Below are positions 5,163 to 49,101 of a DNA stretch of 64,000 bases, piece by piece. The stretch's first letter is position 1; each line of letters opens with the position of its first letter. A program made the translations under genes and the position numbers. The notes under the pieces were generated by a model, which saw nothing but the letters and a program-made list of their open reading frames with translations, was not told the DNA's origin and searched no databases. Source of the stretch: a phage; the NCBI GenBank assembly GCA_012401045.1, contig GCA_012401045.1_4704.2. One strand, given 5' to 3'.

Positions 5163-7721
5163 TTACTGCTCTTCACGTTCCAGCAGATACTCGGAAGCGG
5201 TAATACCGTTTACCGTACGTACTGCTTTCAGACGAGTATCATCGCTCAGAATTACAGTAACAGATTGCAGACCTTTTACTTTGGTTTCGAAGGTCTTGAA
5301 CACCTGATCCAGCATACGAGCAATGCTTGGGTTGGTTGCAGCCGATGCGTGGGTGTAACCGCTCTGATTCAGCTTCAGAATCTTGGCGTTGGTCGGTACG
5401 CGAACAACAACATGCGGGCGCATCGCGAATACGCTGTGATTGAACCAGTAAGCGTCGTTACTATCTTCGTCGGTAACGATGTCTGGATTAACACGCATAT
5501 CCTCGACAGCCGCATCCGCCAAACGACGTTCGATTTCATCGGCGTCCAGAGAGCCATCTTTCTCCAGTTCTGCACGATACTCACTCATGGCAACCAGATG
5601 ACGTTCACGATTCGCTGCGGATTTTTCGTGAGCTGCTTTCAGGTAGTCATGCATGTTGTACAGTTCTGCCATGGAAAGACGAATGTTCCACTGACCTTCG
5701 CCGTCACGATTGCAGTAGAGACACTTCAGCATGTTGACCCAGGTATAGTAGCAATTGGAGAATTCATCTTCAATGAACTTCTGGTCCATTTTAAGATCGT
5801 GAATCAGCCAACCGGACAGTTCTCCGATATCATCAACGAAGCTAGAGATGGTGGTTTCAGAGAAGTTCTTCGGTACGATACGTTTGATCAGCTTATTGAC
5901 GTCTTTGGTCATGCTATCGTTCAGGAAATGCCAAATACGCAGAGGAATAACATCTCGATACTGTTGCATGATCTGACGATAAGCTTTGATATCGTCGCTA
6001 CGACCTTTATCAATAGACAACGCATCCAGGAATTCATGGATTGCATCCAGCTCTTTGTCGGTATAGGTTCCCAGATAGGAATTGACGGTGGCAAGGAATG
6101 CTAATGCGTCGTTTTGGTTGACGTCGGTGTTGGTCTGCTGAATGATTGCCACTGAAGCTTTGGTTTCAGCATCCTCAACGCTTGACGCTGCGATTGCGTC
6201 GGTGACGGTAAACAGTTTCATTTCGCGCTGCTCACCGACAACGATTGGCTCACGTTGAACCGGTTTGTTAAGACTAACACGAACAACTTCTGCTTGCGCG
6301 ATGCGATCCAGTTTTGCCATTTCCTGCTCTGCCATACGACGAGCGGTTGGATCTGATTCAAGTTCGATGTATTCCACTTCTTCCTCCGTGAGGGATGTAA
6401 TGTCAACAATGGTTTCATGAAGAATTCCGTTTTCGTCGATACGTGCTCGACGAGCGAAGTGCCTGAAGTCATACAACGTCGGCCAACGACTATTAGGTGC
6501 AAAGTCTTTGGCTTTCAGACGCATCTGCATAAATTCTTCATGTTGAACAACACGACCGTAACGCTTAGCATCTTCGGTCGCATCAATTGGATTAACGGTC
6601 TTTGTTACCGTAGCAGAACGAGCCGTACGAACGGGTTCCGGTTTCACCTGCGCAGGTTCAGGTTGAACGGGTTTCTGCTGCCCAGCCTTAACATGCCATT
6701 CTGGCTCTTCGTACTGTTCAGCAAACTGTTCAGCCGCTGCAAAGATATCGTTGATACCACCAATATCTCCTTCAGGATTTGTCGAGTAAATCCGTGGTTG
6801 TGGTGCCTCGTAACGCGGCGCTGTGTTAACAGGTACCTCATCAACGATAGGATCGTCATCACCAACATCATACAAACGGTTGAACGCACAATCCTTCGAA
6901 TCGATGTATGATGGCGCTTGTGGTTGGACAACCGTAGGTCGAGGTTGTGTGCCGTATCCTGGTGTTGTTGGAGCCATACCACGCATAACTGCAGGACTAG
7001 GTTGGTATTGCGGTTGTGGGTAGGTTCCACCATACATGGCGTACGCAGGCTGTTGTGGTTGACCATACCCGTTGCTAACCATCGCGCTTGCTTGCGGCCC
7101 ACGATAAGTCATCCCCATCTGCATCACCTGCTGCTTCAAACCACGTGATTTCTGAGCGATTTGCGCCAGGCTTCCGCTTTTATTCAGCTGCGTGTACTTA
7201 TTCGCGGCTTCCGGGTTAATGCGTGATAATTCAATCGCGCGATAATATTCCGGGTACTGATTCGGTTCAAAGAGCCACGTTACAAGATGATACAGCGCAA
7301 CTGTACTCACGGCAGCAGAGACGATCTGGTCATCGGACGCGTTCTGTGGCATCGGGTTGATGTAAGAGAACACGTTCCAACAACAGTCTTCAACAAGCGA
7401 TTCCATCATCATATCGTTATTGGTATAACGTGCGACGAACTCGGTTTGTATTTTGTCTTGCTGAGCGAAGTCTTTCAGGACATTAAAGATGGCTTGACGG
7501 ATTTTGACGATCGTCGCTTCTTGGGTGATGAAGTTATAGTTCTGCTGATATGAGGGTTGTTGGTATTGTGGTGGTTGATAGGCGTTATTCGGGTATGCGC
7601 CGTACGGCGATTGCTGATACTGTTGCTGACTAACCTGTTCAGCCGCATAATTAACCGTGCTCGTATAAGGGTTTTCGCTATAGCCCATTTGTTGATACAT
7701 GTTGTTACTGCCATTATACAT
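5163..7721 (-). CDS. hypothetical protein (852 aa) with Gln/Tyr/Pro-rich low-complexity regions
   Basis: ORF track; AAAGGA RBS; N-terminal ~60 aa and an internal ~75 aa stretch are Q/Y/P/G-rich (QQPAYAMYGGTYPQPQYQPSP). Confidence 0.85.
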   Translation of the reverse strand: MYNGSNNMYQQMGYSENPYTSTVNYAAEQVSQQQYQQSPYGAYPNNAYQPPQYQQPSYQQNYNFITQEATIVKIRQAIFNVLKDFAQQDKIQTEFVARYTNNDMMMESLVEDCCWNVFSYINPMPQNASDDQIVSAAVSTVALYHLVTWLFEPNQYPEYYRAIELSRINPEAANKYTQLNKSGSLAQIAQKSRGLKQQVMQMGMTYRGPQASAMVSNGYGQPQQPAYAMYGGTYPQPQYQPSPAVMRGMAPTTPGYGTQPRPTVVQPQAPSYIDSKDCAFNRLYDVGDDDPIVDEVPVNTAPRYEAPQPRIYSTNPEGDIGGINDIFAAAEQFAEQYEEPEWHVKAGQQKPVQPEPAQVKPEPVRTARSATVTKTVNPIDATEDAKRYGRVVQHEEFMQMRLKAKDFAPNSRWPTLYDFRHFARRARIDENGILHETIVDITSLTEEEVEYIELESDPTARRMAEQEMAKLDRIAQAEVVRVSLNKPVQREPIVVGEQREMKLFTVTDAIAASSVEDAETKASVAIIQQTNTDVNQNDALAFLATVNSYLGTYTDKELDAIHEFLDALSIDKGRSDDIKAYRQIMQQYRDVIPLRIWHFLNDSMTKDVNKLIKRIVPKNFSETTISSFVDDIGELSGWLIHDLKMDQKFIEDEFSNCYYTWVNMLKCLYCNRDGEGQWNIRLSMAELYNMHDYLKAAHEKSAANRERHLVAMSEYRAELEKDGSLDADEIERRLADAAVEDMRVNPDIVTDEDSNDAYWFNHSVFAMRPHVVVRVPTNAKILKLNQSGYTHASAATNPSIARMLDQVFKTFETKVKGLQSVTVILSDDTRLKAVRTVNGITASEYLLEREEQ

Positions 7722-7755
7722 TTCTTACGATCCTTTTTATTTATTCGGTTATGTG

Positions 7756-9552
7756 TCAATCGATTATGTCACGATCGTTAATTTCTACAATTTCTTCATC
7801 GAATCGACCGACGTCTTTCTTCAAGCCTGCATTGGTTGCTGCAACGTCATTTGCAATTTGTGGGGTAATGATTAACCGACCGCGTTCGTCGATAGGTGCG
7901 TACATACTGAACTTCTGACGTCCGGTTGGTTCGGAGTGTGGAAGATTCAGATAGCTTGCGCAGAACGGGATGGAACCACTAACCAAACGACTCTCGTCAG
8001 CCAATGCAGCACCGCCTGCGTTTTGGCTCTGGAGAACAACATGCGTGCTCACTTTGAACAGCATGCAATCACCAGGTGACTGAATCGATGTTGCCACTTT
8101 CTCACGTTTGTCACGATTGCTCTGGATATTGAGAATCGCTTCCGTTGCAACTTGATTTCGCAACGCCTTCTGTACATCGCGATTGGTCATCTCTTTACGG
8201 TTGTTCTGTCGTTTACCACGCTCCGTGGTTTTAAGATGGAACCCCAGTTTAAAGATGCTCTTACGCACATCCTCCATGACATATTCCAACACCATCAATT
8301 CCTTACCGAACATCGTCGTGGTATCAACACGACTCATTTCGATAGTAACATTGTCAATCAGATAGGCCATAAATTCATAGAAGTCGTCGCAAGGAATATT
8401 TTCCTGTTTGAACTTCTTCTGCTGAATTTCGTCAACGTAAAGATCGAGACTGTCGATGTGGTGGTTTACATCACGCAACAAACGCGCATCCGCATTGTTG
8501 TTATTAAAGATAATCAAACCGAGTAATGTACGCCAATGGTCTGGCGCATTCGCGAACTCCTCAACCGGATAGTCTTCCGGAAAACGATCGTAATAACGGT
8601 CGATGAGATACAAGAATGCACCGACAAGGCCAAGAACAATACGTTCCGTGCCTCCACGTCTTACAGCAATTTGAATATCAGGATGTTTGTAACGTACAGC
8701 GCTAGCGCTACGACTTTTACCGCTTTTGCTGATACTAAAACCTTTAGGAATAACCCCCATGGTGCGATAGATTACCCATTGGTCACGCGGAAAATCGCGT
8801 TCAGCAAGGTTCCGTCCGGTTACGGCTTCGACACCTGCAAAACGTCGGAAACACTCACCCACCCCGTACTTCGCAAAGAGATAGTGACCCAGTGTGGTTA
8901 CGCTGGTGTGGTTGATGTTGTCACCGTTCACTTTACTTTGTTTGGTAAGATGATAGATTTGTGACCAGGGTAATGACAGGTAATGACGATAATCGATACC
9001 GGTCGGTGTATCATTGCTCAGGAACTGATACGGCGTACGTTTAACCGTGATTTTGTCACGCGGAAGCATGATGAACGCCATGTCTTTCGTGTAACTGATT
9101 ACCGGGTCAGCGAGCACTGCACTGAGAATGAAGTTCGCACCACGTAGACGCATTTTACCACCCTGACCTACCGCGGGTAATAGGAGAGGATGTCGGATAA
9201 TGCAGTAGTCCTTTCCGGGTTCACGACGGTCACCTGATTCCATCGCGCCGTACCAGCGGAATTCTAGCATCACCATAAACACATCGGATGGCGCAAGGTC
9301 GAAGGTCAGCTTACCGCTATCCTTCCCTTTGGTTTTCTTTCCTCCGCTTAAGTAGTGGAACTGTTCGCGGGCCATACAGCGACGCAGGCCATGATACACC
9401 AGATCCTTAGGTAAACTATCTTTGCTGTTCCGCCAAAGACGATCAACATAGGACTCAACATCTTGCATCTTATCGACGACGATGTTGCGTGCTATCTTCT
9501 CGTTCATCTTCGGTGCAAGCCCAGCGACAGCTTTGCAGAATCTAGGATCCAT
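7756..9552 (-). CDS. hypothetical protein (598 aa)
   Basis: ORF track; start moved to second Met (ATG) preceded by AAAGGAG. Confidence 0.85.
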   Translation of the reverse strand: MDPRFCKAVAGLAPKMNEKIARNIVVDKMQDVESYVDRLWRNSKDSLPKDLVYHGLRRCMAREQFHYLSGGKKTKGKDSGKLTFDLAPSDVFMVMLEFRWYGAMESGDRREPGKDYCIIRHPLLLPAVGQGGKMRLRGANFILSAVLADPVISYTKDMAFIMLPRDKITVKRTPYQFLSNDTPTGIDYRHYLSLPWSQIYHLTKQSKVNGDNINHTSVTTLGHYLFAKYGVGECFRRFAGVEAVTGRNLAERDFPRDQWVIYRTMGVIPKGFSISKSGKSRSASAVRYKHPDIQIAVRRGGTERIVLGLVGAFLYLIDRYYDRFPEDYPVEEFANAPDHWRTLLGLIIFNNNNADARLLRDVNHHIDSLDLYVDEIQQKKFKQENIPCDDFYEFMAYLIDNVTIEMSRVDTTTMFGKELMVLEYVMEDVRKSIFKLGFHLKTTERGKRQNNRKEMTNRDVQKALRNQVATEAILNIQSNRDKREKVATSIQSPGDCMLFKVSTHVVLQSQNAGGAALADESRLVSGSIPFCASYLNLPHSEPTGRQKFSMYAPIDERGRLIITPQIANDVAATNAGLKKDVGRFDEEIVEINDRDIID

Positions 9553-9591
9553 CACACACTCCTTTCAGAAAGTTGCTTAAGCAGATTAAAG

Positions 9592-11028
9592 TTACTTTTT
9601 CGATGACGCTTTCTCAAGAATCTTGAAAAAGGTCATACCTATACCGACAACGGCCGCGGTTATGCTCGCAGCGGCTTTCCAAACATCGACGTTACGTTGA
9701 CGTCGCGCTTCTTCCGCTTCACGTTGTCTTTTTGCCTCTTCATCACGTCGACGTATCTCAGCAGCAAACTCGTCGTGCTTACGTTTGGATTCTTCGTCTC
9801 GACGACGAAGTTCAGCGACGAATTCTTCATGTTTGCGTTTAGCCTCGTCGTCACGACGTTTTAAATCAGCTTGATAATCTTCGTGTATTTGTCTACGTAG
9901 ATCATCTTGACGCTTCATTTCGGCTTGGTGTTGTTCCATCCTACGTTTTTGTTCGTCTTTAAGCTGATCGAGTTCGGCTTTATGTTGTTCATCGCGCAGC
10001 TTTGCGTCGGCGCGATGCGCCTCATGCATCTGTGAGATAACTGCCTTGTGTTCATCCGCCATACGTCGCATTTCAGCCATCACCCCTTTAAGGGTTTCTT
10101 CTGATGCCTTACGTTCGTAGCTACGTTGGTCGAAATCATTTTTGTAGGCTTCTTTTTGGATGGGGTCGCGCCAATGCAATGCCGATTCACGTGTCGGAAA
10201 AACATTGTACTTCCACATCTCTTTTTCCAAATCTTCGACCGGTACGAAGATGGAGTCATTATTCCCGAAGGTAACCAACATGCCTGGCGCGCCTGCTCCA
10301 TTCGTTGGTTTTATTTCGAACGCTTTCCCCAACACGTTAACCCATAAGCTATACGGATTATGAAAGTCGGGCGGCGTCCAATGGATAGTGAGTTGCGTTC
10401 CGAGAATCCGGAAACCCTCTGTTTTTCCCGTCAAGCTCCGCGCGCACGTTGCGATGTAGGGGTGATCAATCCCTTTCGTAACGTGGTCTGCGCTTTTGTA
10501 TTCTCCTTTAACTTTTACGATTGCCACGTTGATTTGCGCGACATAAGCGGGTTGATTAAAGTTCAACGTGTTGAGGTCAATTTGACATATTTCATCCAGC
10601 GTATCGTACCAGTCTTGCTGGTCTAATAGACGCGGCATTTTCTCTGTGTTAACAATACGACGGATATGCGGTTTCCTTATCGCGTAACCTGTACCGTTTT
10701 TAACACGGAGTATATCCCGACGTCTACCCGCGTAGACGAAGTTTCTGAATGCACCATTCGCATTAGATACGTCATGGCTGTCAACTATTACAGGACTACG
10801 AAATTTTGAACGTCGTACGATCCTGAATGTATTGCCGTCCTCAACCCTACCAGGAATGTACTGGAACATATTGTCGGAGGTGATAACCAACACGGTATGG
10901 CCAGATTCATTAATACATGCCCATCCTAATTCCAGGTCATATAACGGTTCAGCATAACCGTCAATGCGATAAGCGTGCGTACCATCCCACGGTTCGAACG
11001 CGGTATCACATATTGGCATGGAGGGCAT
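9592..11028 (-). CDS. hypothetical protein with E-R/K-rich repeat helix and C-terminal transmembrane anchor
   Basis: ORF track; start moved to ATG after GGAGG; about 2.5 tandem 16-aa repeats (RRRDEExKRKHEEFxAEL); terminal hydrophobic AAASITAAVVGIGMTFFKIL followed by KK. Confidence 0.85.
   Translation of the reverse strand: MPSMPICDTAFEPWDGTHAYRIDGYAEPLYDLELGWACINESGHTVLVITSDNMFQYIPGRVEDGNTFRIVRRSKFRSPVIVDSHDVSNANGAFRNFVYAGRRRDILRVKNGTGYAIRKPHIRRIVNTEKMPRLLDQQDWYDTLDEICQIDLNTLNFNQPAYVAQINVAIVKVKGEYKSADHVTKGIDHPYIATCARSLTGKTEGFRILGTQLTIHWTPPDFHNPYSLWVNVLGKAFEIKPTNGAGAPGMLVTFGNNDSIFVPVEDLEKEMWKYNVFPTRESALHWRDPIQKEAYKNDFDQRSYERKASEETLKGVMAEMRRMADEHKAVISQMHEAHRADAKLRDEQHKAELDQLKDEQKRRMEQHQAEMKRQDDLRRQIHEDYQADLKRRDDEAKRKHEEFVAELRRRDEESKRKHDEFAAEIRRRDEEAKRQREAEEARRQRNVDVWKAAASITAAVVGIGMTFFKILEKASSKK
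9690..9860 (-). repeat. imperfect in-frame tandem repeats (~48 nt units) encoding the E-R/K-rich helix
   Basis: Repeated cgacg/cttcat-containing units visible in DNA; repeated KRKHEEF motifs in protein. Confidence 0.6.
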
Positions 11029-11177
11029 CGTCAACCTCCATCAGATTGAAAACTATCACGCATAATACATTTCCCTTTTCTTGTTCTTATCGAGCCGACA
11101 GCCGACGGTTTCAGCATCGTTCCTAGCGCGAGAACGACCTTACGTGTTGTCTATGCCTTATTCATCGCAGGCGTCTG

Positions 11178-11197
11178 TCACCTAGGTAATGTAAGCG
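11178..11197 (-). promoter_or_regulatory. conserved TCACCTAGGTAATGTA box (third, partial copy of the cassette at 19341 and 56566)
   Basis: Near-identical 15-20 nt block shared with 19361-19380 and 56586-56605; lies upstream (minus-strand sense) of CDS 9592-11028. Confidence 0.3.
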
Positions 11198-11228
11198 TCA
11201 AATTTTTTCTATTCGCAACGATAAACGG

Positions 11229-11276
11229 CATAGAAACCTCCCCCAACCCTTGCGGGCTGAGGGAGGCTGACTTATG
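11229..11276 (-). terminator. GC-rich extended stem-loop, family member b (CATA ... TATG flanks)
   Basis: CCTCCCCC / GAGGGAGG arms with inner CCC-TTGC-GGG; ~90 nt 3' of capsid gene stop. Confidence 0.45.
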
Positions 11277-11365
11277 TATCACGGTGCCGGATGAATGTCC
11301 GGTGCAATGAAACCATCCGCAACGTTGTCATCAAGAATATCATCCAACGAAGCAGCTACGGTAGT

Positions 11366-13588
11366 TCAGTTAGTCTGAACCGGCAGCTTGATGTTTTCAG
11401 TGTAGACCTTACGCAGGTTCACAACGTTAATCAGACCCAGCAGCGGGCAGTTGTTAACGAAGCGGCAGCGCGGCTGAACCATGGTTTCTTTAGAAACCTG
11501 ACCGTTACGGGTAACCTGAGCAACAGATACCAGTTCCGGTACGTACAGGAACATACCGAAGGTCAGCGGATCCGGAGAACCCTGGATACCACGAGACAGG
11601 GTCACGAAGATCTTATCGCGCAGCATGACGTTCGGGTTATCTACAACCACGAAGTTGAAGCTTACACCGACGGTACGGAAATCGCCATCGGTCTGCAGGA
11701 ACTGCGGGATGTAGTTGTCAGTTGCTACTACGCAACGCGGTTTCTCATCGGCGTTGGAAGACAGCAGCTGCAGAGCTGGCTGATAACCAGACTCGGAGTA
11801 CATGCGGTATGCCATCTCACGAATCACGTTCATGATCGCAGCAGACACTTCAGCACGACGTTCTGCAGTGGTGGTACCCTGAACAGATTTCTCCAGGTCC
11901 AGATTGATTTCTTCGAACCACGGACGGATCAGGTAACGACCGAAACCTTCGATCTGGATGTCACCGAACTGACGGAAGCGAGAGGTCGCAACCGCTTTCA
12001 GTGCGTCTTTGTAGCTGAACAGTTTCTCAACCATCAGGTTGTCGAAACGTGCGTTAGCAGCTTGGATCAGAACGTCCAGGTCAGCAGCGTTTTCTTCCCA
12101 ATCCAGCGGACGAGGAATGGAGAACGGAGCCAGCAGGCCGATTGCGTAACGTTCTTGCTTCATGTTGAAGTCAAGGTGCTTACCGCGTTCACGACGGTTG
12201 CTGTTGTTACGGCGGATACGCAGTTCGTAACCAACCAGTTTGAAGCTCAGGTCTTCAGCCAGTTGTTTGAACTCTTCGCTCTTACGCGGTTGTTCGATGT
12301 TGTCCTGATCAACCAGGCGATACAGTTCAGCGTTAGCGCCGTTAACACGCAGACCCGCTTTCTCTACGTTGGAAGAACCGTAAACTTCGATCGCCAGCTG
12401 AGCAGCAGATTTCGCATCGATGATGTCCTGCAGCGCTTCGGCTTTCGCACCTTTAACGTCTTTGGTGTTCTCATCAACGAAGATGGAGTGGGTGTCGAAC
12501 GCCAGGGTCATTTTGCGGAAGTCGCCTTCCAGGGATTTCTGGAAACCGTTGGTGATCAGACCAGATACGTCGAACGGTACGTAAGAGGTTTTGCTGTGCT
12601 TGGTAGATTTGATTTCCACCAGGATTTTGGTCAGCGTGATCTGGGCGTCCAGCGCGTCGGTGTTGTCGCTATAACCGTTAGCCAGGATGCTATCGTCTTC
12701 AGCGATACCGATCATGTCGATCAGTTTATCAACAGCCAGGTAAGACGTTTTATAAGTTACGCCTTTAATTTCGATGTCGCGCGGAGCAACGATAGCTTTG
12801 TCAACGAAGTACTGCGCGTTAGCATCGTCAGCACGATAGATCGGATGCAGATCGGTCACGTCGTTGGACAGAACGTCGTTGTACATGAACGCATCCAGCA
12901 GCGGACGACGTACCCAATCAGCCGGAGTACCGTCGGCGTTACGACGCAGGTGGTTGAACACCAGCGGACGACGGAAAGATACGTCGTAACCGATCTGGTT
13001 CGGAGCCAGAACGATGGTGTTGTACAGTTCGTTACCCATGCGGCTCAGACGAGAAGCCTTCACGTTGAACACAACGGAGTACGGCATCATGTCACGCAGT
13101 TCTTTCTGGTCGTAGGACAGCTGAACCAGTTCTTCAGATTCGCAACCGCAGGAATCAGCAGCCATCATGACGAAGTTAGAGCTGTCAACTTCACGGCCAG
13201 ACGGAGTGGTGCTGATGTTCATGGAACGTGCTTGTTTAGCATATTCCACCGGGTTACCATGAGCCAGCATGATCAGTGCTGCTGCACGAGCCTGCTGTGC
13301 GTTCATGGTGAACAGCTGTTCTTCAATACGCTGCTTCTCTTCCGGAGTGGTGGTTTCGAAGCCCAGCATGGACAGAACCGGTTCTTCTGCTTTACGGATG
13401 TCGCTGCTGAAGCTCTTAACATCCATTTCGTTAACCAGTTTGTCCATGGATTTGAAATCAACCTTAGAAGCAGATTCCATAGACAGGAAGGTGTTCTCCA
13501 GACCTTTGTCTGCTGGTTTGCTACCATTAGCGGTCAGGAACTGGCGAGTGGCCGCGACCTGTTGGCTAAGAAGGGTTTTATCATTCAT
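11366..13588 (-). CDS. major capsid protein candidate (740 aa, jumbo-phage size class)
   Basis: ORF track; size typical of phiKZ-like capsid proteins (~740-750 aa); very strong highly-expressed codon bias (ctg, cgt, ggt, aac); AAGGAT RBS; followed by stem-loop b. Confidence 0.7.
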   Translation of the reverse strand: MNDKTLLSQQVAATRQFLTANGSKPADKGLENTFLSMESASKVDFKSMDKLVNEMDVKSFSSDIRKAEEPVLSMLGFETTTPEEKQRIEEQLFTMNAQQARAAALIMLAHGNPVEYAKQARSMNISTTPSGREVDSSNFVMMAADSCGCESEELVQLSYDQKELRDMMPYSVVFNVKASRLSRMGNELYNTIVLAPNQIGYDVSFRRPLVFNHLRRNADGTPADWVRRPLLDAFMYNDVLSNDVTDLHPIYRADDANAQYFVDKAIVAPRDIEIKGVTYKTSYLAVDKLIDMIGIAEDDSILANGYSDNTDALDAQITLTKILVEIKSTKHSKTSYVPFDVSGLITNGFQKSLEGDFRKMTLAFDTHSIFVDENTKDVKGAKAEALQDIIDAKSAAQLAIEVYGSSNVEKAGLRVNGANAELYRLVDQDNIEQPRKSEEFKQLAEDLSFKLVGYELRIRRNNSNRRERGKHLDFNMKQERYAIGLLAPFSIPRPLDWEENAADLDVLIQAANARFDNLMVEKLFSYKDALKAVATSRFRQFGDIQIEGFGRYLIRPWFEEINLDLEKSVQGTTTAERRAEVSAAIMNVIREMAYRMYSESGYQPALQLLSSNADEKPRCVVATDNYIPQFLQTDGDFRTVGVSFNFVVVDNPNVMLRDKIFVTLSRGIQGSPDPLTFGMFLYVPELVSVAQVTRNGQVSKETMVQPRCRFVNNCPLLGLINVVNLRKVYTENIKLPVQTN

Positions 13589-13737
13589 TGAAAGTATCCT
13601 TTACAGAATTAACTTATATAAGTCGGTCGATAGACCATAGCGTACACGCGTGCATGCGCCACTATAGTATCAGTAAACACTTACCGTTATTGAGGTCGTG
13701 ATACAACACTAAAAATGCCGCATAACTTTTCCCTACG

Positions 13738-14358
13738 TCATAAACGACGCAGGCGATAATGGATGGAACGATTGGTGCAATATGAACGGAACAGCGGCAA
13801 TTGCGCAACTTCCGCAAGACTCATATTAATTCGCAGGTGTTCAATAACGGCGCTGTAGTTATCAGCAATACGATCGCTCAATAACTCTTCTGCCAATAAA
13901 GGAAGACAATCGACAACAATCGCGATCACATCCTCATTAACATAACGCACCCGAACACTCAACGGACGTTTGTCTGGGCTGTAAGTTGGATCCGCCAAAC
14001 GACGTTCAATATCACGCGGATAGCTCGTCAGTAAATGGTAATAACCATTGTCATAACGATTGATGTACTCACACAGCACATCAACATTCTTCTCTGGCGG
14101 CAAACCTGTTTCGTCATAGTGATACGCAAACATACCACCAAGCAGGTTGTTAAGATGAACCGCAGGGTTCGCTTGTTCGTGTTCTTTCGTGATGAAGAAA
14201 GGCACATTTTGAGCTGCGAAATAAAAACCTACATCATTGGGCGATAGTATGCCGAAAAGACTTTTAGGGTCTAATAACACCTGTAAGTCATCACGCGCAT
14301 TTCGAATAATCGCGTGTTCTACCCAATTCGGAACGACGAGATATCGGAGTTCCTTCAT
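13738..14358 (-). CDS. hypothetical protein (206 aa)
   Basis: ORF track; AAAGAGG RBS. Confidence 0.8.
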   Translation of the reverse strand: MKELRYLVVPNWVEHAIIRNARDDLQVLLDPKSLFGILSPNDVGFYFAAQNVPFFITKEHEQANPAVHLNNLLGGMFAYHYDETGLPPEKNVDVLCEYINRYDNGYYHLLTSYPRDIERRLADPTYSPDKRPLSVRVRYVNEDVIAIVVDCLPLLAEELLSDRIADNYSAVIEHLRINMSLAEVAQLPLFRSYCTNRSIHYRLRRL

Positions 14359-17459: not shown

Positions 17460-17535
17460 CGTATTTTACCTTTCTATGTTAGGTGGATTTCGGATAGAAG
17501 AATCAATGCATAAACTAATTTAAGTTTGTTAAGGT

Positions 17536-18438
17536 TTACTTAGCCTTTGAGTTATACGGACTAACATGTTGTTGTACTCGTTGGATTGTATCGTAGTACG
17601 GGTTAAGTTGATTGAACATGTTGTTGTGTGGGTGATAGCCATATGGCGCATTTTGCCTTGTTGGTGAGAAACCTTGTTGAGAAGGACGGTTTGAATTAAC
17701 CGCGAGTACGTAGTAAACCAAATTTTGGCGGTCGAACGTTCCTTCGTTTTTGAAGGTGTCGGCGTAGGCGCTTACCGCTGGAGCGAGCCTATCACCATCG
17801 GTTGTAATGATTGTGCCATCGGGATAAACTTCCCGAACGACGCACCATGTTCCGATGAGAACATCTTTGGGTGATGTATTACCGTATCCGGTTGTAACGG
17901 TAAGGTAAGTATCGAACCCTTCAGAACAACAAGGATGACGATAGATGGGTCCTGTCATTTCCAGTCTATCGGTGTCACCGCATTTCTCTATTGAGAGCGA
18001 TGATGTGTCGGTTTTGAAATTGTCAAATTCTTTCTTTAAGTCGATTACGGGTTCTTTCGTATAGTACTTCTTGATTGCTTTGACGTAAAGATCGGGAACG
18101 GTTGTCAGCAATCCGTTATACCTGATTCTCAGGTTTTCGAGTAATCCAAAGATGCTCGCGCATGCCTGTTCGCGAGGTTTTGTAAGATAAGAGATCCCCC
18201 CAGGAACGCTGGGATCTTTGAGAAAGAAGATTGCGTTATTGTCGTTGTGCGATGCGTTGAAGAAAACGATTGATTCGATATATACGGAGCATAGGCTGTC
18301 GTTGGCGTCGTCAGATAACACCCAGATGCACTCATCGGTCGTCTTGTTTAAAAGTTCTGTTTTGTCGACCAAACGTTGTTTCATTGCGAGGAAATGTGCC
18401 TGTTGTTCAGCGGATAATTCACGATAAATGGTGGTCAT
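17536..18438 (-). CDS. hypothetical protein (300 aa), paralog of 18524-19306
   Basis: ORF track; shared block PIYRHPCCSEGFDTYLTVTTGYG...REVYPDGTI versus PIYVHPECHTTYDRYLTITGGVA...REIYPDGRI. Confidence 0.8.
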   Translation of the reverse strand: MTTIYRELSAEQQAHFLAMKQRLVDKTELLNKTTDECIWVLSDDANDSLCSVYIESIVFFNASHNDNNAIFFLKDPSVPGGISYLTKPREQACASIFGLLENLRIRYNGLLTTVPDLYVKAIKKYYTKEPVIDLKKEFDNFKTDTSSLSIEKCGDTDRLEMTGPIYRHPCCSEGFDTYLTVTTGYGNTSPKDVLIGTWCVVREVYPDGTIITTDGDRLAPAVSAYADTFKNEGTFDRQNLVYYVLAVNSNRPSQQGFSPTRQNAPYGYHPHNNMFNQLNPYYDTIQRVQQHVSPYNSKAK

Positions 18439-18523
18439 GTTGAGCTCCTTGATTACGATAAGGATGATTGCGGTTTTGTGGTGTTGGTAGGGCCCTAAAC
18501 AAATGAACCCTACTAATATTAGG

Positions 18524-19306
18524 TTAATCGGGATCGGCGTAGAAATGGTGAGGATAGCCGGAGTACGATCCCGCGTTACCGGTTATGGATTCTTTCTGGG
18601 AATCGACGACGAGTGCATAGAACTGTCGGGAATTTGTTAGCGTTGAGAAATAAGAGGAAAGGACTTTTTCATTCAACGCATCGCAAGGTAGACAGGTGCG
18701 ACCGCAAAACGTCACGATACGGCCGTCAGGATAGATCTCACGAATCATTCTCCACTCGCCAATATCGACTGGTGATGGCGCTGCTACACCACCTGTTATC
18801 GTTAAGTAACGATCGTACGTGGTATGGCATTCAGGATGAACGTAAATCGGTTGGGCATCAATACTATCGTTTTCTGTTTGATCTTTATTCACGTATACCT
18901 CAAGGTAGATTGTTGGTAACCCGGTTAGAACGCCAGTGTCACGACGTTTTTTGGTAATCCGGGGACGGATATTATCGAGCACGCCTTCCAGTTTTTCTGC
19001 GACTTCGTCAGCCGGTAATATATACCCGTATGTTGGTTCTGGGTCATCACCGTGGCTAAATAAGATACGACAGTCGTTTTTATTAAATTCTATATCTTCA
19101 GGTGGGAAGATGATGACGCGAACCGTATGGCGTTCTGCGATATAAAATCCTTCAGGCCCCTCAGTTTTGGTAAGTGTAAAGGACCAGGATGAATGATCTT
19201 CAAGTGACGTGCCTGCCAGGAAAAAGTCCGCCCGAATTGGTGCGTTCCATTTCGCGATCATATTGGCGTGACCAATAACGCCTAATTTTTGATAAATATC
19301 TGTCAT
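18524..19306 (-). CDS. hypothetical protein (260 aa), paralog of 17536-18438
   Basis: ORF track; GAGGA RBS; promoter/operator-like cassette immediately upstream. Confidence 0.8.
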   Translation of the reverse strand: MTDIYQKLGVIGHANMIAKWNAPIRADFFLAGTSLEDHSSWSFTLTKTEGPEGFYIAERHTVRVIIFPPEDIEFNKNDCRILFSHGDDPEPTYGYILPADEVAEKLEGVLDNIRPRITKKRRDTGVLTGLPTIYLEVYVNKDQTENDSIDAQPIYVHPECHTTYDRYLTITGGVAAPSPVDIGEWRMIREIYPDGRIVTFCGRTCLPCDALNEKVLSSYFSTLTNSRQFYALVVDSQKESITGNAGSYSGYPHHFYADPD

Positions 19307-19340
19307 GATTGTATCCTCGGTTATTAAGAGAATTTACAAC

Positions 19341-19400
19341 GATAACAGTAACCGCTGTTATCACCTAGGTAATGTAGTCGCGAAATAAACTGGAGTAATG
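19341..19400 (-). promoter_or_regulatory. conserved promoter/operator-like cassette: 8-bp inverted repeat GATAACAG-N6-CTGTTATC followed by ACCTAGGTAATGTAGTCGCGAAATAAACTG
   Basis: About 60 nt block ~85% identical to 56566-56620; sits 35-95 nt upstream of CDS 18524-19306 start. Confidence 0.4.
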
Positions 19401-47790: not shown

Positions 47791-49101
47791 TTAGGCGATA
47801 ATGGAGTCAAGAGTCGCTGCGGTTTTGAACAGATCGTTGTTCATTGTAGAAGAAAGGACTTGCTGAATTTCTTCCTGTTTAACCGCTTTACGAACCCCAG
47901 GACGAAGGATAAGCGTAACCATCTGTGAAAAGGTACGATTATTGTTCATCGCACTCAGCGTTTCATCGATTGTTTTGATGGCATCCAGCGTCATGGAACG
48001 AACATCGCTTGGGATATCACGATCTTTCAAGCGTATAATTAAATCTTGTTTGATTTTACGGAATCGTTCCATGTCGTTATCGTAAATGCTGTATGTCGGA
48101 TCTAACCAAACAGAAAGCGCGGTTACAGCGACAACAACCAACACGCCGATAGCACCAACAGAAGCTAAACCTATCGCCATCATAGAAGCTATAGTAGCAT
48201 CCATGATGAAGGAGAGCCAGAACATCGTTTTGGACTTCACGGAGTCTTTGCTATAAAGCCGATACATTTTAGCAAGCCCGCTAACGAGATACTCCCCACC
48301 GCCATGACGCGTAGCGAACTGATCAGCCATGAATTCGGAAGCAACGTCGGTATATCGTCCAGCGTTGTTTACGTTTCTTAACTGCATCGCTCTGTTAGAC
48401 ACGTAAACCGTGTACCAGACACTACCGTCGTCTGAATCACTGATTTTGTCTACGTCGACGTTGGTATCCAACGTTTTGTTTAACGCTTTCGCCAGTTCGA
48501 TACGTTTTACCTTATCGGTTGTCCCCAACAGTTCACGCTGTACGGTCATGATTGAGGCTTCGACACGAACCGTTTCCGACAATGTTTCAAGGAAGGTAAA
48601 TGCGTGCCCGATTTCATGCAGCATTATGGCTGCTTTTTCTTCCGGAAGAAAGGGTTCTGTCGCCGTTAGCAGTTCATACGTGATGGCAGAACGAATCTTC
48701 AATTCTTCAAAAATACCGTAAACACGACCTTTTTCTAAATCGACGTAACCGACAGGTGTATCTTTAATCTTCTTAAGGAGCGTAACACCATCAGCACCGC
48801 GCATCCATAACCGATGATAGTCTGCCAGGATTGTGTTGTTTGTCGAAATATCCGGCGGGTACACGTAGGCATTCATCCGGCCCATTTTCACGTCGACCGA
48901 GAATTCGATGTTCAACCCCGTATAGCGTTTAACCATCTCGGTTAAACGACCGTCCTTGAAAACGTTTAAAACCTCTTTTTTATCCAGTCCCTGTTTGCTT
49001 CTGAAGAACTCGGTCATTTCCTTGAACAAGGAACCATCTTGAAACTTGATGGCCTCCATCGTTAATTCGTCATGACCATACACGCGTTGTAGTAATGACA
49101 T
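47791..49101 (-). CDS. putative membrane-anchored zinc metalloprotease (HExxH)
   Basis: ORF track; motif MLHEIGHAF; hydrophobic stretch FWLSFIMDATIASMMAIGLASVGAIGVLVVVAVTALSVWL. Confidence 0.6.
   Translation of the reverse strand: MSLLQRVYGHDELTMEAIKFQDGSLFKEMTEFFRSKQGLDKKEVLNVFKDGRLTEMVKRYTGLNIEFSVDVKMGRMNAYVYPPDISTNNTILADYHRLWMRGADGVTLLKKIKDTPVGYVDLEKGRVYGIFEELKIRSAITYELLTATEPFLPEEKAAIMLHEIGHAFTFLETLSETVRVEASIMTVQRELLGTTDKVKRIELAKALNKTLDTNVDVDKISDSDDGSVWYTVYVSNRAMQLRNVNNAGRYTDVASEFMADQFATRHGGGEYLVSGLAKMYRLYSKDSVKSKTMFWLSFIMDATIASMMAIGLASVGAIGVLVVVAVTALSVWLDPTYSIYDNDMERFRKIKQDLIIRLKDRDIPSDVRSMTLDAIKTIDETLSAMNNNRTFSQMVTLILRPGVRKAVKQEEIQQVLSSTMNNDLFKTAATLDSIIA

Follow-up and report, generated by a model that had tools for sequence, protein, structure and literature searches.

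Head, variable charged stalk and anchor-like tail in a core protein of nucleus-forming phages

The window analysed here is a stretch of 64,000 nucleotides of phage DNA (assembly GCA_012401045.1, contig GCA_012401045.1_4704.2). Its positions 9000-14000 match Escherichia phage vB_EcoM_Goslar from end to end at 99.0% identity; this jumbo phage belongs to the Chimalliviridae and forms a nucleus. This report concerns the gene at 9592-11028 on the minus strand. Its product shares 99.4% amino-acid identity with Goslar gp040 (YP_009820725.1, annotated 'hypothetical protein') and is called gp040, or the gp040 orthologue, below. Judged by profile comparison, gene order and structure search, it is the Goslar-clade member of the chimallivirus core family cg35. 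We conclude that gp040 is a core protein specific to chimalliviruses, expressed early and absent from the virion, and built on a head-rod-tail plan in which the rod appears free to change in both length and sequence.

The gene and the three parts of its product

An open reading frame (ORF) at these positions had been picked out in an earlier note, made from the letters of the sequence alone, and it stands as proposed. The ATG at 11028 is preferred as start codon over the TTG at 11034 because of its spacing from a GGAGG ribosome-binding site, and the Goslar annotation uses the same start codon. The gene and its parts, all on the minus strand, are as follows.

9592-11028, minus strand: gp040 orthologue, whole gene; 478 residues, ATG at 11028, TAA stop at 9592-9594 (ORF list and sequence)
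11035-11039, minus strand: GGAGG ribosome-binding site, 6 nt 5' of the ATG at 11028 (direct reading)
10165-11028, minus strand: N-terminal head, residues 1-288, beta-rich and conserved family-wide (hhalign, phrog_7727, Foldseek)
9685-10164, minus strand: charged alpha-helical stalk, residues 289-448, 160 residues (structure prediction and composition)
9865-10026, minus strand: three degenerate 18-residue units, residues 335-388 (unit table and alignment of close relatives)
9703-9864, minus strand: three clear 18-residue units of 54 nt each (lag analysis and shuffle control)
9811-9864, minus strand: clear unit, residues 389-406
9757-9810, minus strand: clear unit, residues 407-424
9703-9756, minus strand: clear unit, residues 425-442
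9625-9675, minus strand: putative C-terminal hydrophobic anchor segment, residues 452-468 (AAASITAAVVGIGMTFF) (Kyte-Doolittle mean, uncharged run, Eisenberg hydrophobicity)
9595-9624, minus strand: basic C-terminal tip, residues 469-478, KILEKASSKK, net charge +3

Residues 452-468 form the most hydrophobic stretch of the protein, with a Kyte-Doolittle 19-residue mean (KD19) of 1.76, and the eight top hydrophobic 19-residue windows all fall inside residues 447-474. The segment is bracketed by W450-K451 and K469, is followed by 10 residues only, and has an Eisenberg mean hydrophobicity <H> of 0.63 in an 18-residue window. There is a single C-terminal hydrophobic segment and neither a signal peptide nor a second membrane segment, which places it where a tail anchor lies. 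Within the Goslar clade the tail is nearly invariant, showing one T466A change in one relative, and basic tips such as that of gp040 are the rule in the family. What makes the tail distinctive is its place at the end of a long charged helix, together with its conservation, rather than its hydrophobicity value. The single C-terminal hydrophobic helix ending in KK that the earlier note described is thus present, while its capacity to span a membrane is borderline and does not extend to the whole family. As a separate observation, the most hydrophobic segment of the window belongs to another protein, encoded by the ORF at 47791-49101 on the minus strand (436 residues); its residues 308-326 (MAIGLASVGAIGVLVVVAV) have a KD19 of 2.57 and make a far stronger candidate for a membrane segment than the tail of gp040.

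Between head and tail, AlphaFold2 (AF2) predicts one unbroken helix over residues 289-475, the means of its local confidence score (pLDDT) over ten-residue blocks lying at 80-94 across residues 331-470. At 1.5 Å per residue the 160 residues of the stalk amount to ~24 nm. Over its full length the stalk consists of 53% D/E/K/R and 17% large hydrophobic residues, whereas residues 389-448 have a D/E/K/R fraction of 0.67, a hydrophobic fraction of 0.12 and, per residue, 0.38 opposite-charge pairs at i/i+4 and 0.43 at i/i+3. We found no hydrophobic periodicity of 3.4-3.8 residues in the stalk, the observed peak power being matched by 862 of 2000 shuffles. Because the stalk lacks a hydrophobic seam, whether heptad or hendecad, a canonical coiled coil is not supported and was set aside. 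A monomer prediction by AF2 cannot tell a single alpha-helix (SAH) from a coiled coil; taken with the composition, a charged SAH is plausible for residues 389-448 and a weaker proposition for residues 289-388.

Spacers of the ER/K SAH type occur in myosin VI, myosin X and caldesmon, and as engineered ER/K linkers. Like these, gp040 has a long unbroken predicted helix, an E/R/K fraction of 0.57 in residues 389-448, dense opposite charges at i/i+3 and i/i+4, and no seam. Unlike them, it has only 33-35% E/R/K in its proximal 100 residues (289-388), where His, Gln, Met and Leu are interspersed, and each of its repeat units contains an F-[VIA]-A-E-[LI] patch. The E-R/K richness first proposed for this protein is consequently confined to the distal part of the stalk, residues 389-448.

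The head is the least tractable part to model. It comprises ~288 residues, with helix predicted from residue 289 onwards, and is thus shorter than the ~330-residue N-terminal domain of the earlier note. Motifs conserved in it comprise N40 (N-x-S/T), H189-P190 and, over residues 277-283, F-P-T-x-E-x-A. Confidence in the AF2 model of the head is low, with a pLDDT of 49 and values below 50 in two runs, one of which used a more diverse alignment.

Repeat units and variation of the stalk

Self-comparison of residues 300-448 gave a mean BLOSUM62 score of 1.45 (33% identity) at a lag of 18 residues and of 1.00 at a lag of 36; all other lags from 1 to 44 scored at most 0.27, and the lag-18 score was reached by none of 5000 residue shuffles. 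The three clear units share the consensus [LI]-[KR]-R-R-D-[DE]-E-x-K-R-K-H-[DE]-E-F-x-A-E. Units 389-406 and 407-424 have 13 of their 18 residues in common, unit 425-442 matches each of them at 9/18, and the degenerate units in residues 335-388 match the three clear ones at 2-8/18. The earlier note had read three copies of a 16-residue unit, encoded by imperfect ~48-nt DNA repeats. A repeat is indeed present, with a period of 18 residues, the number of letters in the motif as it was written out, and with two strong copies, one half-copy and three degenerate ones. At the DNA level the proposal fails: the period is 54 nt, the units are identical at 29-35 of 54 nt (at most 65%), Tandem Repeats Finder reported no repeat at a score of at least 30 in 9500-11100, and a DNA repeat search returned one 18-nt pair only, at 54-nt spacing. 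A slippage-prone tandem DNA repeat, of the contingency type with variable copy number, was accordingly rejected. The low DNA identity and the empty Tandem Repeats Finder result indicate that the repeats are old and have been kept at the protein level.

The stalk nonetheless differs in length between close relatives, as the earlier note had anticipated for its repeat number. Goslar-like relatives at 83% identity or more encode proteins of 460, 478, 489 and 507 residues. These differences correspond to one 18-residue deletion, one 11-residue insertion and one 18-residue insertion, all located in the stalk; the 18-residue events fall in the zone of residues 335-388, and the 11-residue insertion lies farther upstream, after residue 318. 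The result is a natural series of stalks of 142, 160, 171 and 189 residues in near-identical phages, whose capsid proteins are 98.5-99% identical. An 18-residue unit makes exactly five helical turns; an indel of 18 residues shifts the helix by 5.0 turns and one of 11 residues by 3.06, so that the rotational register between head and tail is roughly kept. With three events, two of them unit-sized, this preservation of helical register is suggestive only.

Comparison with individual variants suggests that the stalk does not share its history with the rest of the gene. Against the 507-residue variant, amino-acid identity is 99.2% for the capsid protein, 99.3% for the non-virion RNA polymerase (nvRNAP) subunit encoded next to gp040, 98.3% for the head and 96.7% for the tail, compared with 64.8% for residues 301-388 and 86.7% for residues 389-448 of the stalk. 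Silent change, counted in codons for identical amino acids, is 19-35% in the stalk and 6-7.5% in the remainder of the gene. Against the 460-residue variant, silent change reaches 26-37% over the whole gp040 gene, compared with 8% in the capsid gene and 18% in the nvRNAP gene. Because silent divergence is raised in the stalk, slippage or amino-acid selection alone would not account for its difference from the 507-residue variant; the pattern suggests that the stalk came in as a module from some relative farther away. Taken together, the mosaicism around gp040 points to recombinational exchange of the gene or of its stalk.

In more distant relatives, identity is ~30% for the head and 68-71% for the capsid and nvRNAP proteins, which marks gp040 as a fast-evolving core gene. 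From these comparisons, the Goslar-clade helix would have been lengthened to ~160 residues by duplications of the 18-residue unit, and would still be changing through 18- and 11-residue indels and through module exchange. Stalk length is thus tunable, and the head and tail are the constrained parts. The idea of a domain held at a fixed distance is contradicted by stalks of 142-189 residues among near-identical phages and by linkers of ~58-102 residues in the other sampled clades, whereas a charged, rod-like spacer with an anchor at its end stays plausible.

The cg35 family and its conserved gene order

Prichard et al. (2023, Table S3) list cg35 as Goslar gp040, phiKZ gp122 and RAY gp001*, where the asterisk denotes a gene unique to chimallin-encoding phages; 21 core genes are restricted to nucleus-forming phages, and cg35 is among them. 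Further members are PhiPA3 gene 138 (YP_009217217.1), 201phi2-1 gp202 and PHROGs 7727, 15024 and 7286, the PhiPA3 gene being tied to the family through its accession and the GenBank note 'similar to gp122 in phiKZ'. Searches of phage records by tblastn with the window protein and with two metagenomic relatives described below (P0015 and P0016) found Goslar only, so the link to phiKZ gp122 required profile-profile comparison; tblastn homologues of the neighbouring nvRNAP subunit were found in 235 phage records. For the family comparison we used 15 cultured phages (phiKZ, PhiPA3, 201phi2-1, Eowyn, PCH45, Ea35-70, RP12, FBKp24, Ea277G, Haymo, Aphrodite1, BONAISHI, Miami, PS1 and Yong XC31). With hhalign, the Goslar group aligned to their orthologues at a probability of 97.9% (E 3.2e-13; residues 30-291, 230 columns), which extends the N-terminal homology search suggested in the earlier note to a head homologous across chimalliviruses. 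The profile phrog_7727 matches gp040 (E 1.4e-5) and eight of the 15 positional orthologues. In a Foldseek comparison of the head model with BFVD, every one of the 24 best matches (E 3e-9 to 3e-5) was an uncharacterised protein from a jumbo phage or an uncultured myovirus; the orthologues of 201phi2-1, Eowyn and RP12 were among them.

Two distant clades, P0015 (413 residues) and P0016 (406 residues), came to light at ~31% identity when the head served as query in an exhaustive HMMER search. Both show the same gene order, a shorter charged helix and a 17-residue hydrophobic end with a Lys-rich tip. Two alignment-seeded searches of a set of 5.8 billion proteins contributed only Aphrodite1-like and Eowyn-like additions. 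At identities of 13-31%, all 18 sampled members begin with a beta-rich head, continue as a charged helix and finish in a tail that is hydrophobic or amphipathic, and in 16 of the 18 the most hydrophobic 17-residue window lies within the last 17 residues of the C-terminus. Members from phiKZ (gp122), PhiPA3, 201phi2-1 and RAY share with gp040 the head homology, the genomic position and the three-part plan. What sets the Goslar clade apart is a stalk 2-3 times longer and richer in E/R/K, 18-residue repeats that are mostly absent elsewhere, and a tail more membrane-like than those of the Pseudomonas-phage members. The uncharged runs in the tails are distributed as follows.

17 residues: Goslar clade, P0015, P0016, Ea277G
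20 residues: Yong XC31
13-16 residues: Eowyn, PCH45, RP12, BONAISHI, Miami
7-11 residues: phiKZ, PhiPA3, 201phi2-1, Ea35-70, FBKp24, Haymo, Aphrodite1, PS1

Judging from these tails, the family-wide feature would be a C-terminal hydrophobic or amphipathic helix that need not span a membrane.

The helical linkers of the other clades measure ~58-102 residues; those of the cultured-phage orthologues, at ~58-85 residues, are free of repeats of the Goslar type and contain 25-32% hydrophobic residues, except in Ea35-70, BONAISHI and Miami. In a family-wide lag test the 18-residue repeat was significant in the Goslar clade only; P0015 gave a hint at lag 18 that was not significant, P0016 gave lags 9 and 18 (p = 0.03), and the Eowyn linker has an 11-residue period (p = 0.016). 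Repeats of 11 residues can also be read directly in the linkers of Eowyn (RLKHEQ...RLKHEQ), PCH45 (SLARKD...SLARKD) and Ea277G (SLERKD...SLDRKD). Alongside the 11- and 18-residue indels of the Goslar clade, they hint that length changes preserving helical phase recur in the family.

These linkers raise the question of whether any anchor is involved. In a soluble oligomer, the helix would pair with other copies of itself or with a partner, and the hydrophobic end would form the core of a small bundle or fold back onto the head. Linkers with 19-32% hydrophobic residues outside the Goslar, P0015, P0016 and BONAISHI clades are coiled-coil-like, the Eowyn periodicity and the helical phase kept by both classes of indel are consistent with pairing, and a tail rich in G/A/S/T favours helix-helix packing. 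Set against this, the gp040 stalk has no significant hydrophobic periodicity of 3.5-3.7 residues, is 12-17% hydrophobic and 53-67% charged, and carries its hydrophobic segment at the very end, bracketed by basic residues, beyond 160 charged helical residues. For gp040 we consider a soluble oligomer distinctly unlikely.

The genomic setting of the gene is conserved too. The neighbouring features in the window are these.

7756-9552, minus strand: nvRNAP subunit, downstream neighbour; Goslar gp039, phiKZ gp123 family (phrog_2943, E 1.2e-119)
11230-11268, minus strand: GC-rich hairpin of ~14 bp with a GCAA loop, then a U-rich tail, ~100 nt past the capsid stop (sequence and RNA fold)
11366-13588, minus strand: major capsid protein, upstream neighbour; Goslar gp041 (PF25620, E 5e-218), late expression class

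The nvRNAP subunit gene starts ~40 nt past the gp040 stop. An ORF of 311-483 residues lies directly upstream of the nvRNAP gene in all 15 cultured phages, and it sits between the capsid and nvRNAP genes in all 13 records whose retrieved sequence reached the capsid gene; the same order is found in Goslar, in the window and in the two metagenomic clades. The RNA of the interval between the capsid gene and gp040 has a folding z-score of -4.3, and the hairpin within it is likely a terminator parting the late capsid transcript from an early gp040-gp039 unit. A scan of 7600-13800 for sigma-70 promoter and terminator consensus found fewer sites than in shuffles and missed this hairpin.

Three further observations concern the surroundings. 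A 766-residue ORF at 11291-13591 on the plus strand runs antisense to the capsid gene (11366-13588), in exact codon register with it. None of the 67 Leu and 52 Ser codons of the capsid gene is TTA, CTA or TCA, compared with 9-27 such codons in neighbouring genes, and this absence leaves the antisense frame free of stops; as a gene, the ORF was rejected as a codon-bias artefact. Beyond the capsid gene, the ORF at 13738-14358 on the minus strand (206 residues; Goslar gp042) has no Pfam or PHROG match and occupies the position of phiKZ gp119; gp042 has been placed in a capsid 'vertex binding complex' (Goslar virion study 2026, 10.64898/2026.04.21.720040). Farther on, at ~17500-19400 on the minus strand, the window is ~1.7 kb longer than Goslar, ORFs at 17536-18438 (300 residues) and 18524-19306 (260 residues), neither with a Pfam match, replacing the sole 63-residue gp047 of Goslar. 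The difference may reflect an indel, or a mobile cassette by which this isolate can be told apart.

Expression, shell proximity and possible roles

Published expression data place gp040 early in infection. Knockdown of ChmA, which halts infection at the lipid EPI-vesicle stage, has been compared with a control (Armbruster et al., bioRxiv 10.1101/2023.09.20.558163, Suppl. Table 2). In that dataset gp040 yielded 1396-1699 reads in the knockdown and 1853-2158 in the control, which after normalisation is a log2 fold change between +0.85 and +1.09, with gp038 and gp039 behaving alike, whereas gp041 (capsid), gp042 and gp043 were down by ~4-5 log2 units (~-4 for gp041). Since its expression is retained under ChmA knockdown and that of the capsid gene is lost, gp040 is an early, nucleus-independent gene, and in both reads and fold change it runs parallel to gp039, which encodes the nvRNAP subunit. 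Mass spectrometry of Goslar virions detected gp041, gp042 and a trace of gp039, and gp040 is absent from the text and tables of that study (10.64898/2026.04.21.720040). On the combined grounds of virion content and early expression class, a virion structural or scaffold role was rejected.

A role in capsid assembly would be a different matter. Chimallivirus capsids reportedly assemble at the cell membrane, and gp040 adjoins the capsid gene; the protein might be a membrane-bound initiator or chaperone of procapsid assembly, comparable to the membrane-associated head-assembly factors of T4. Furthermore, Enustun et al. (2023, PMC10643120) detected the PhiPA3 orthologue YP_009217217.1 by ChmA miniTurboID and recovered it in pulldowns of ChmA and of ChmB; capsid proteins likewise come down with ChmB. 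We regard this role as the most improbable of those weighed here, given that gp040 is expressed early and without a nucleus while the adjoining capsid and vertex genes fall 16- to 30-fold, that a terminator-like hairpin separates it from the capsid gene, and that it was not detected in virions.

The downstream neighbour suggests another partner. Gerovac et al. (2025, PMC12571901) report that, in a phiKZ screen, two independent antisense oligomers against PHIKZ122 scored '+', so that infection suffers from the knockdown, and that it had a strong effect on phage transcription at 30 min. An accessory factor of the nvRNAP, partnering its gp123-family subunit and serving in assembly, delivery or import, would fit this phenotype, the invariable position of the gene directly upstream of the nvRNAP subunit gene, and an expression profile parallel to that of gp039 (10.1101/2023.09.20.558163). 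However, phiKZ gp123 starts 10 nt past the gp122 stop, so the transcription phenotype could be polar on gp123, and the gp122 knockdown did not cluster with those of ChmA, nvRNAP and PicA (PMC12571901). Identity with a phiKZ import factor was rejected, as the gp122 gene is not among the genetically identified factors Imp1-6. Adjacency is in any case weak evidence where many chimallivirus core genes lie in conserved blocks, and we rate an accessory role as quite improbable.

We lean, tentatively, towards gp040 as an anchored stalk or tether that would act early near the membrane or the nuclear shell, and consider its membrane-anchored form quite possible. The C-terminal segment would insert post-translationally into a hydrophobic support; the charged helix would act as a semi-rigid rod keeping the head ~20-28 nm off; and the head would meet a partner on the nascent chimallin shell, or close to it, while the vesicle gives way to the nucleus. 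In the Goslar clade we favour lipid as the support, be it the inner membrane or the EPI vesicle, because the tail has 17 uncharged residues bracketed by basic ones, and because gp040 is made while the EPI vesicle is the sole phage compartment.

Several points weigh against a membrane anchor. Firstly, the 17 uncharged residues of 452-468, 10 of them small, are short for a bilayer, and a rough estimate puts the free energy of insertion near +1.4 kcal/mol. KD19 alone is not decisive, because 9 of the 57 ORFs in the window (gp040 and 8 others) reach 1.6 or more, including internal stretches of presumably soluble proteins. A true transmembrane anchor in the Goslar clade is thus, on sequence grounds, plausible but borderline. 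Secondly, the feature does not carry through the family: Pseudomonas-phage tails have a charge every 7-9 residues, and tails with uncharged runs of 7-11 residues (phiKZ, PhiPA3, 201phi2-1, Ea35-70, PS1 and others) cannot form a classical transmembrane helix. Across the 18 members compared, a membrane-competent anchor is not conserved and, because charges interrupt many tails, the family-wide function may not need a bilayer.

The remaining points against an anchored tether concern its head and its setting. No Pfam family was found for gp040 or the 15 orthologues, leaving both the fold and any partner of the head unrecognised; a sequence-profile search of the PDB with the head gave nothing (best E 0.73), and Foldseek of the head model against the PDB gave no significant match (best E 0.14). 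With a head pLDDT below 50, PDB fold matches are hints at best, and a C2-like beta-sandwich within the head is a hint of this kind from the model, with no sequence signal of C2-type domains. The evidence for shell proximity is thin, the ChmA-GFP pulldown of the PhiPA3 orthologue amounting to 1 peptide (PMC10643120), and the PHIKZ122 phenotype carries the ambiguity of polarity described above. In the literature searched, Goslar gp40, sought by name or accession, occurs in supplementary tables only, and no localisation data were found.

The main rival is a stalk docked on the shell itself. Here the tail would sit in a hydrophobic groove of the ChmA lattice or of a shell protein such as ChmB, rather than in lipid, and the head would project into the cytoplasm for cargo or a partner. 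Labelling of the PhiPA3 orthologue by ChmA-miniTurboID and its recovery with ChmA and ChmB (PMC10643120) are consistent with such docking, as is the restriction of the gene to chimallin-encoding phages (Prichard 2023). It would also explain tails in Pseudomonas phages that are too polar or too short for a bilayer, and a recurring [DE]-x-[hydrophobic]-K ... K-L pattern, seen in the tails of many clades, resembles a binding motif more than a generic anchor. Docking fits the polar Pseudomonas-phage tails and the PhiPA3 proximity data better than a membrane anchor does. It fits less well with the tails of the Goslar clade, P0015, P0016, Yong XC31, RP12 and BONAISHI, which have 13-20 uncharged residues and membrane-typical Eisenberg <H> values of 0.63-0.87, and its support from the ChmA pulldown is that one peptide. 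On balance we think it somewhat unlikely.

For the membrane-anchored tether, comparisons can be drawn with known proteins. Bacterial tail-anchored inner-membrane proteins include ElaB, YqjD and YgaM (DUF883), DjlC and Flk of E. coli. They resemble gp040 in a cytoplasmic N-terminal part, one hydrophobic segment no more than ~30 residues from the C-terminus and a short basic end. They differ in that no sequence relationship was found (no Pfam match), and in that gp040 has a much larger head, a far longer stalk and a shorter, weaker hydrophobic segment that is a putative anchor only. Eukaryotic tail-anchored tethers such as golgins, KASH-type nuclear-envelope proteins and SNARE-like proteins use coiled coils or spectrin repeats as rods. 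The likeness to these is one of analogy alone: two compartments are bridged by a protein anchored at its C-terminus, with a binding head at the far end of an extended helical rod. There is no homology, and the boundary of the phage nucleus is protein, not lipid.

The gene and its family were already catalogued, as hypothetical core gene cg35. In the literature searched we found no description of the cg35 head-stalk-tail plan, of the 18-residue repeat expansion, of stalk mosaicism, or of early expression combined with an anchor-like tail. An orphan core gene thereby gains an architecture (head, rod and hydrophobic tail) and an expression class (early, at the vesicle stage). The stalk series of 142, 160, 171 and 189 residues is a ready-made natural experiment on spacer length. 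If the tail binds nothing, gp040 stays an ordinary conserved hypothetical protein with a low-complexity helix.

More generally, the finding bears on the passage of the injected genome from the lipid EPI vesicle to the protein nucleus. It is conceivable, if unlikely as matters stand, that cg35 proteins are the first phage-encoded anchored tethers of the nucleus-forming cycle, with the tail in the EPI-vesicle or inner membrane, the head on the nascent chimallin shell and the stalk an evolvable, exchanged module. Were this the case, a cg35 tether would form a physical link between the lipid compartment around the injected genome and its protein successor.

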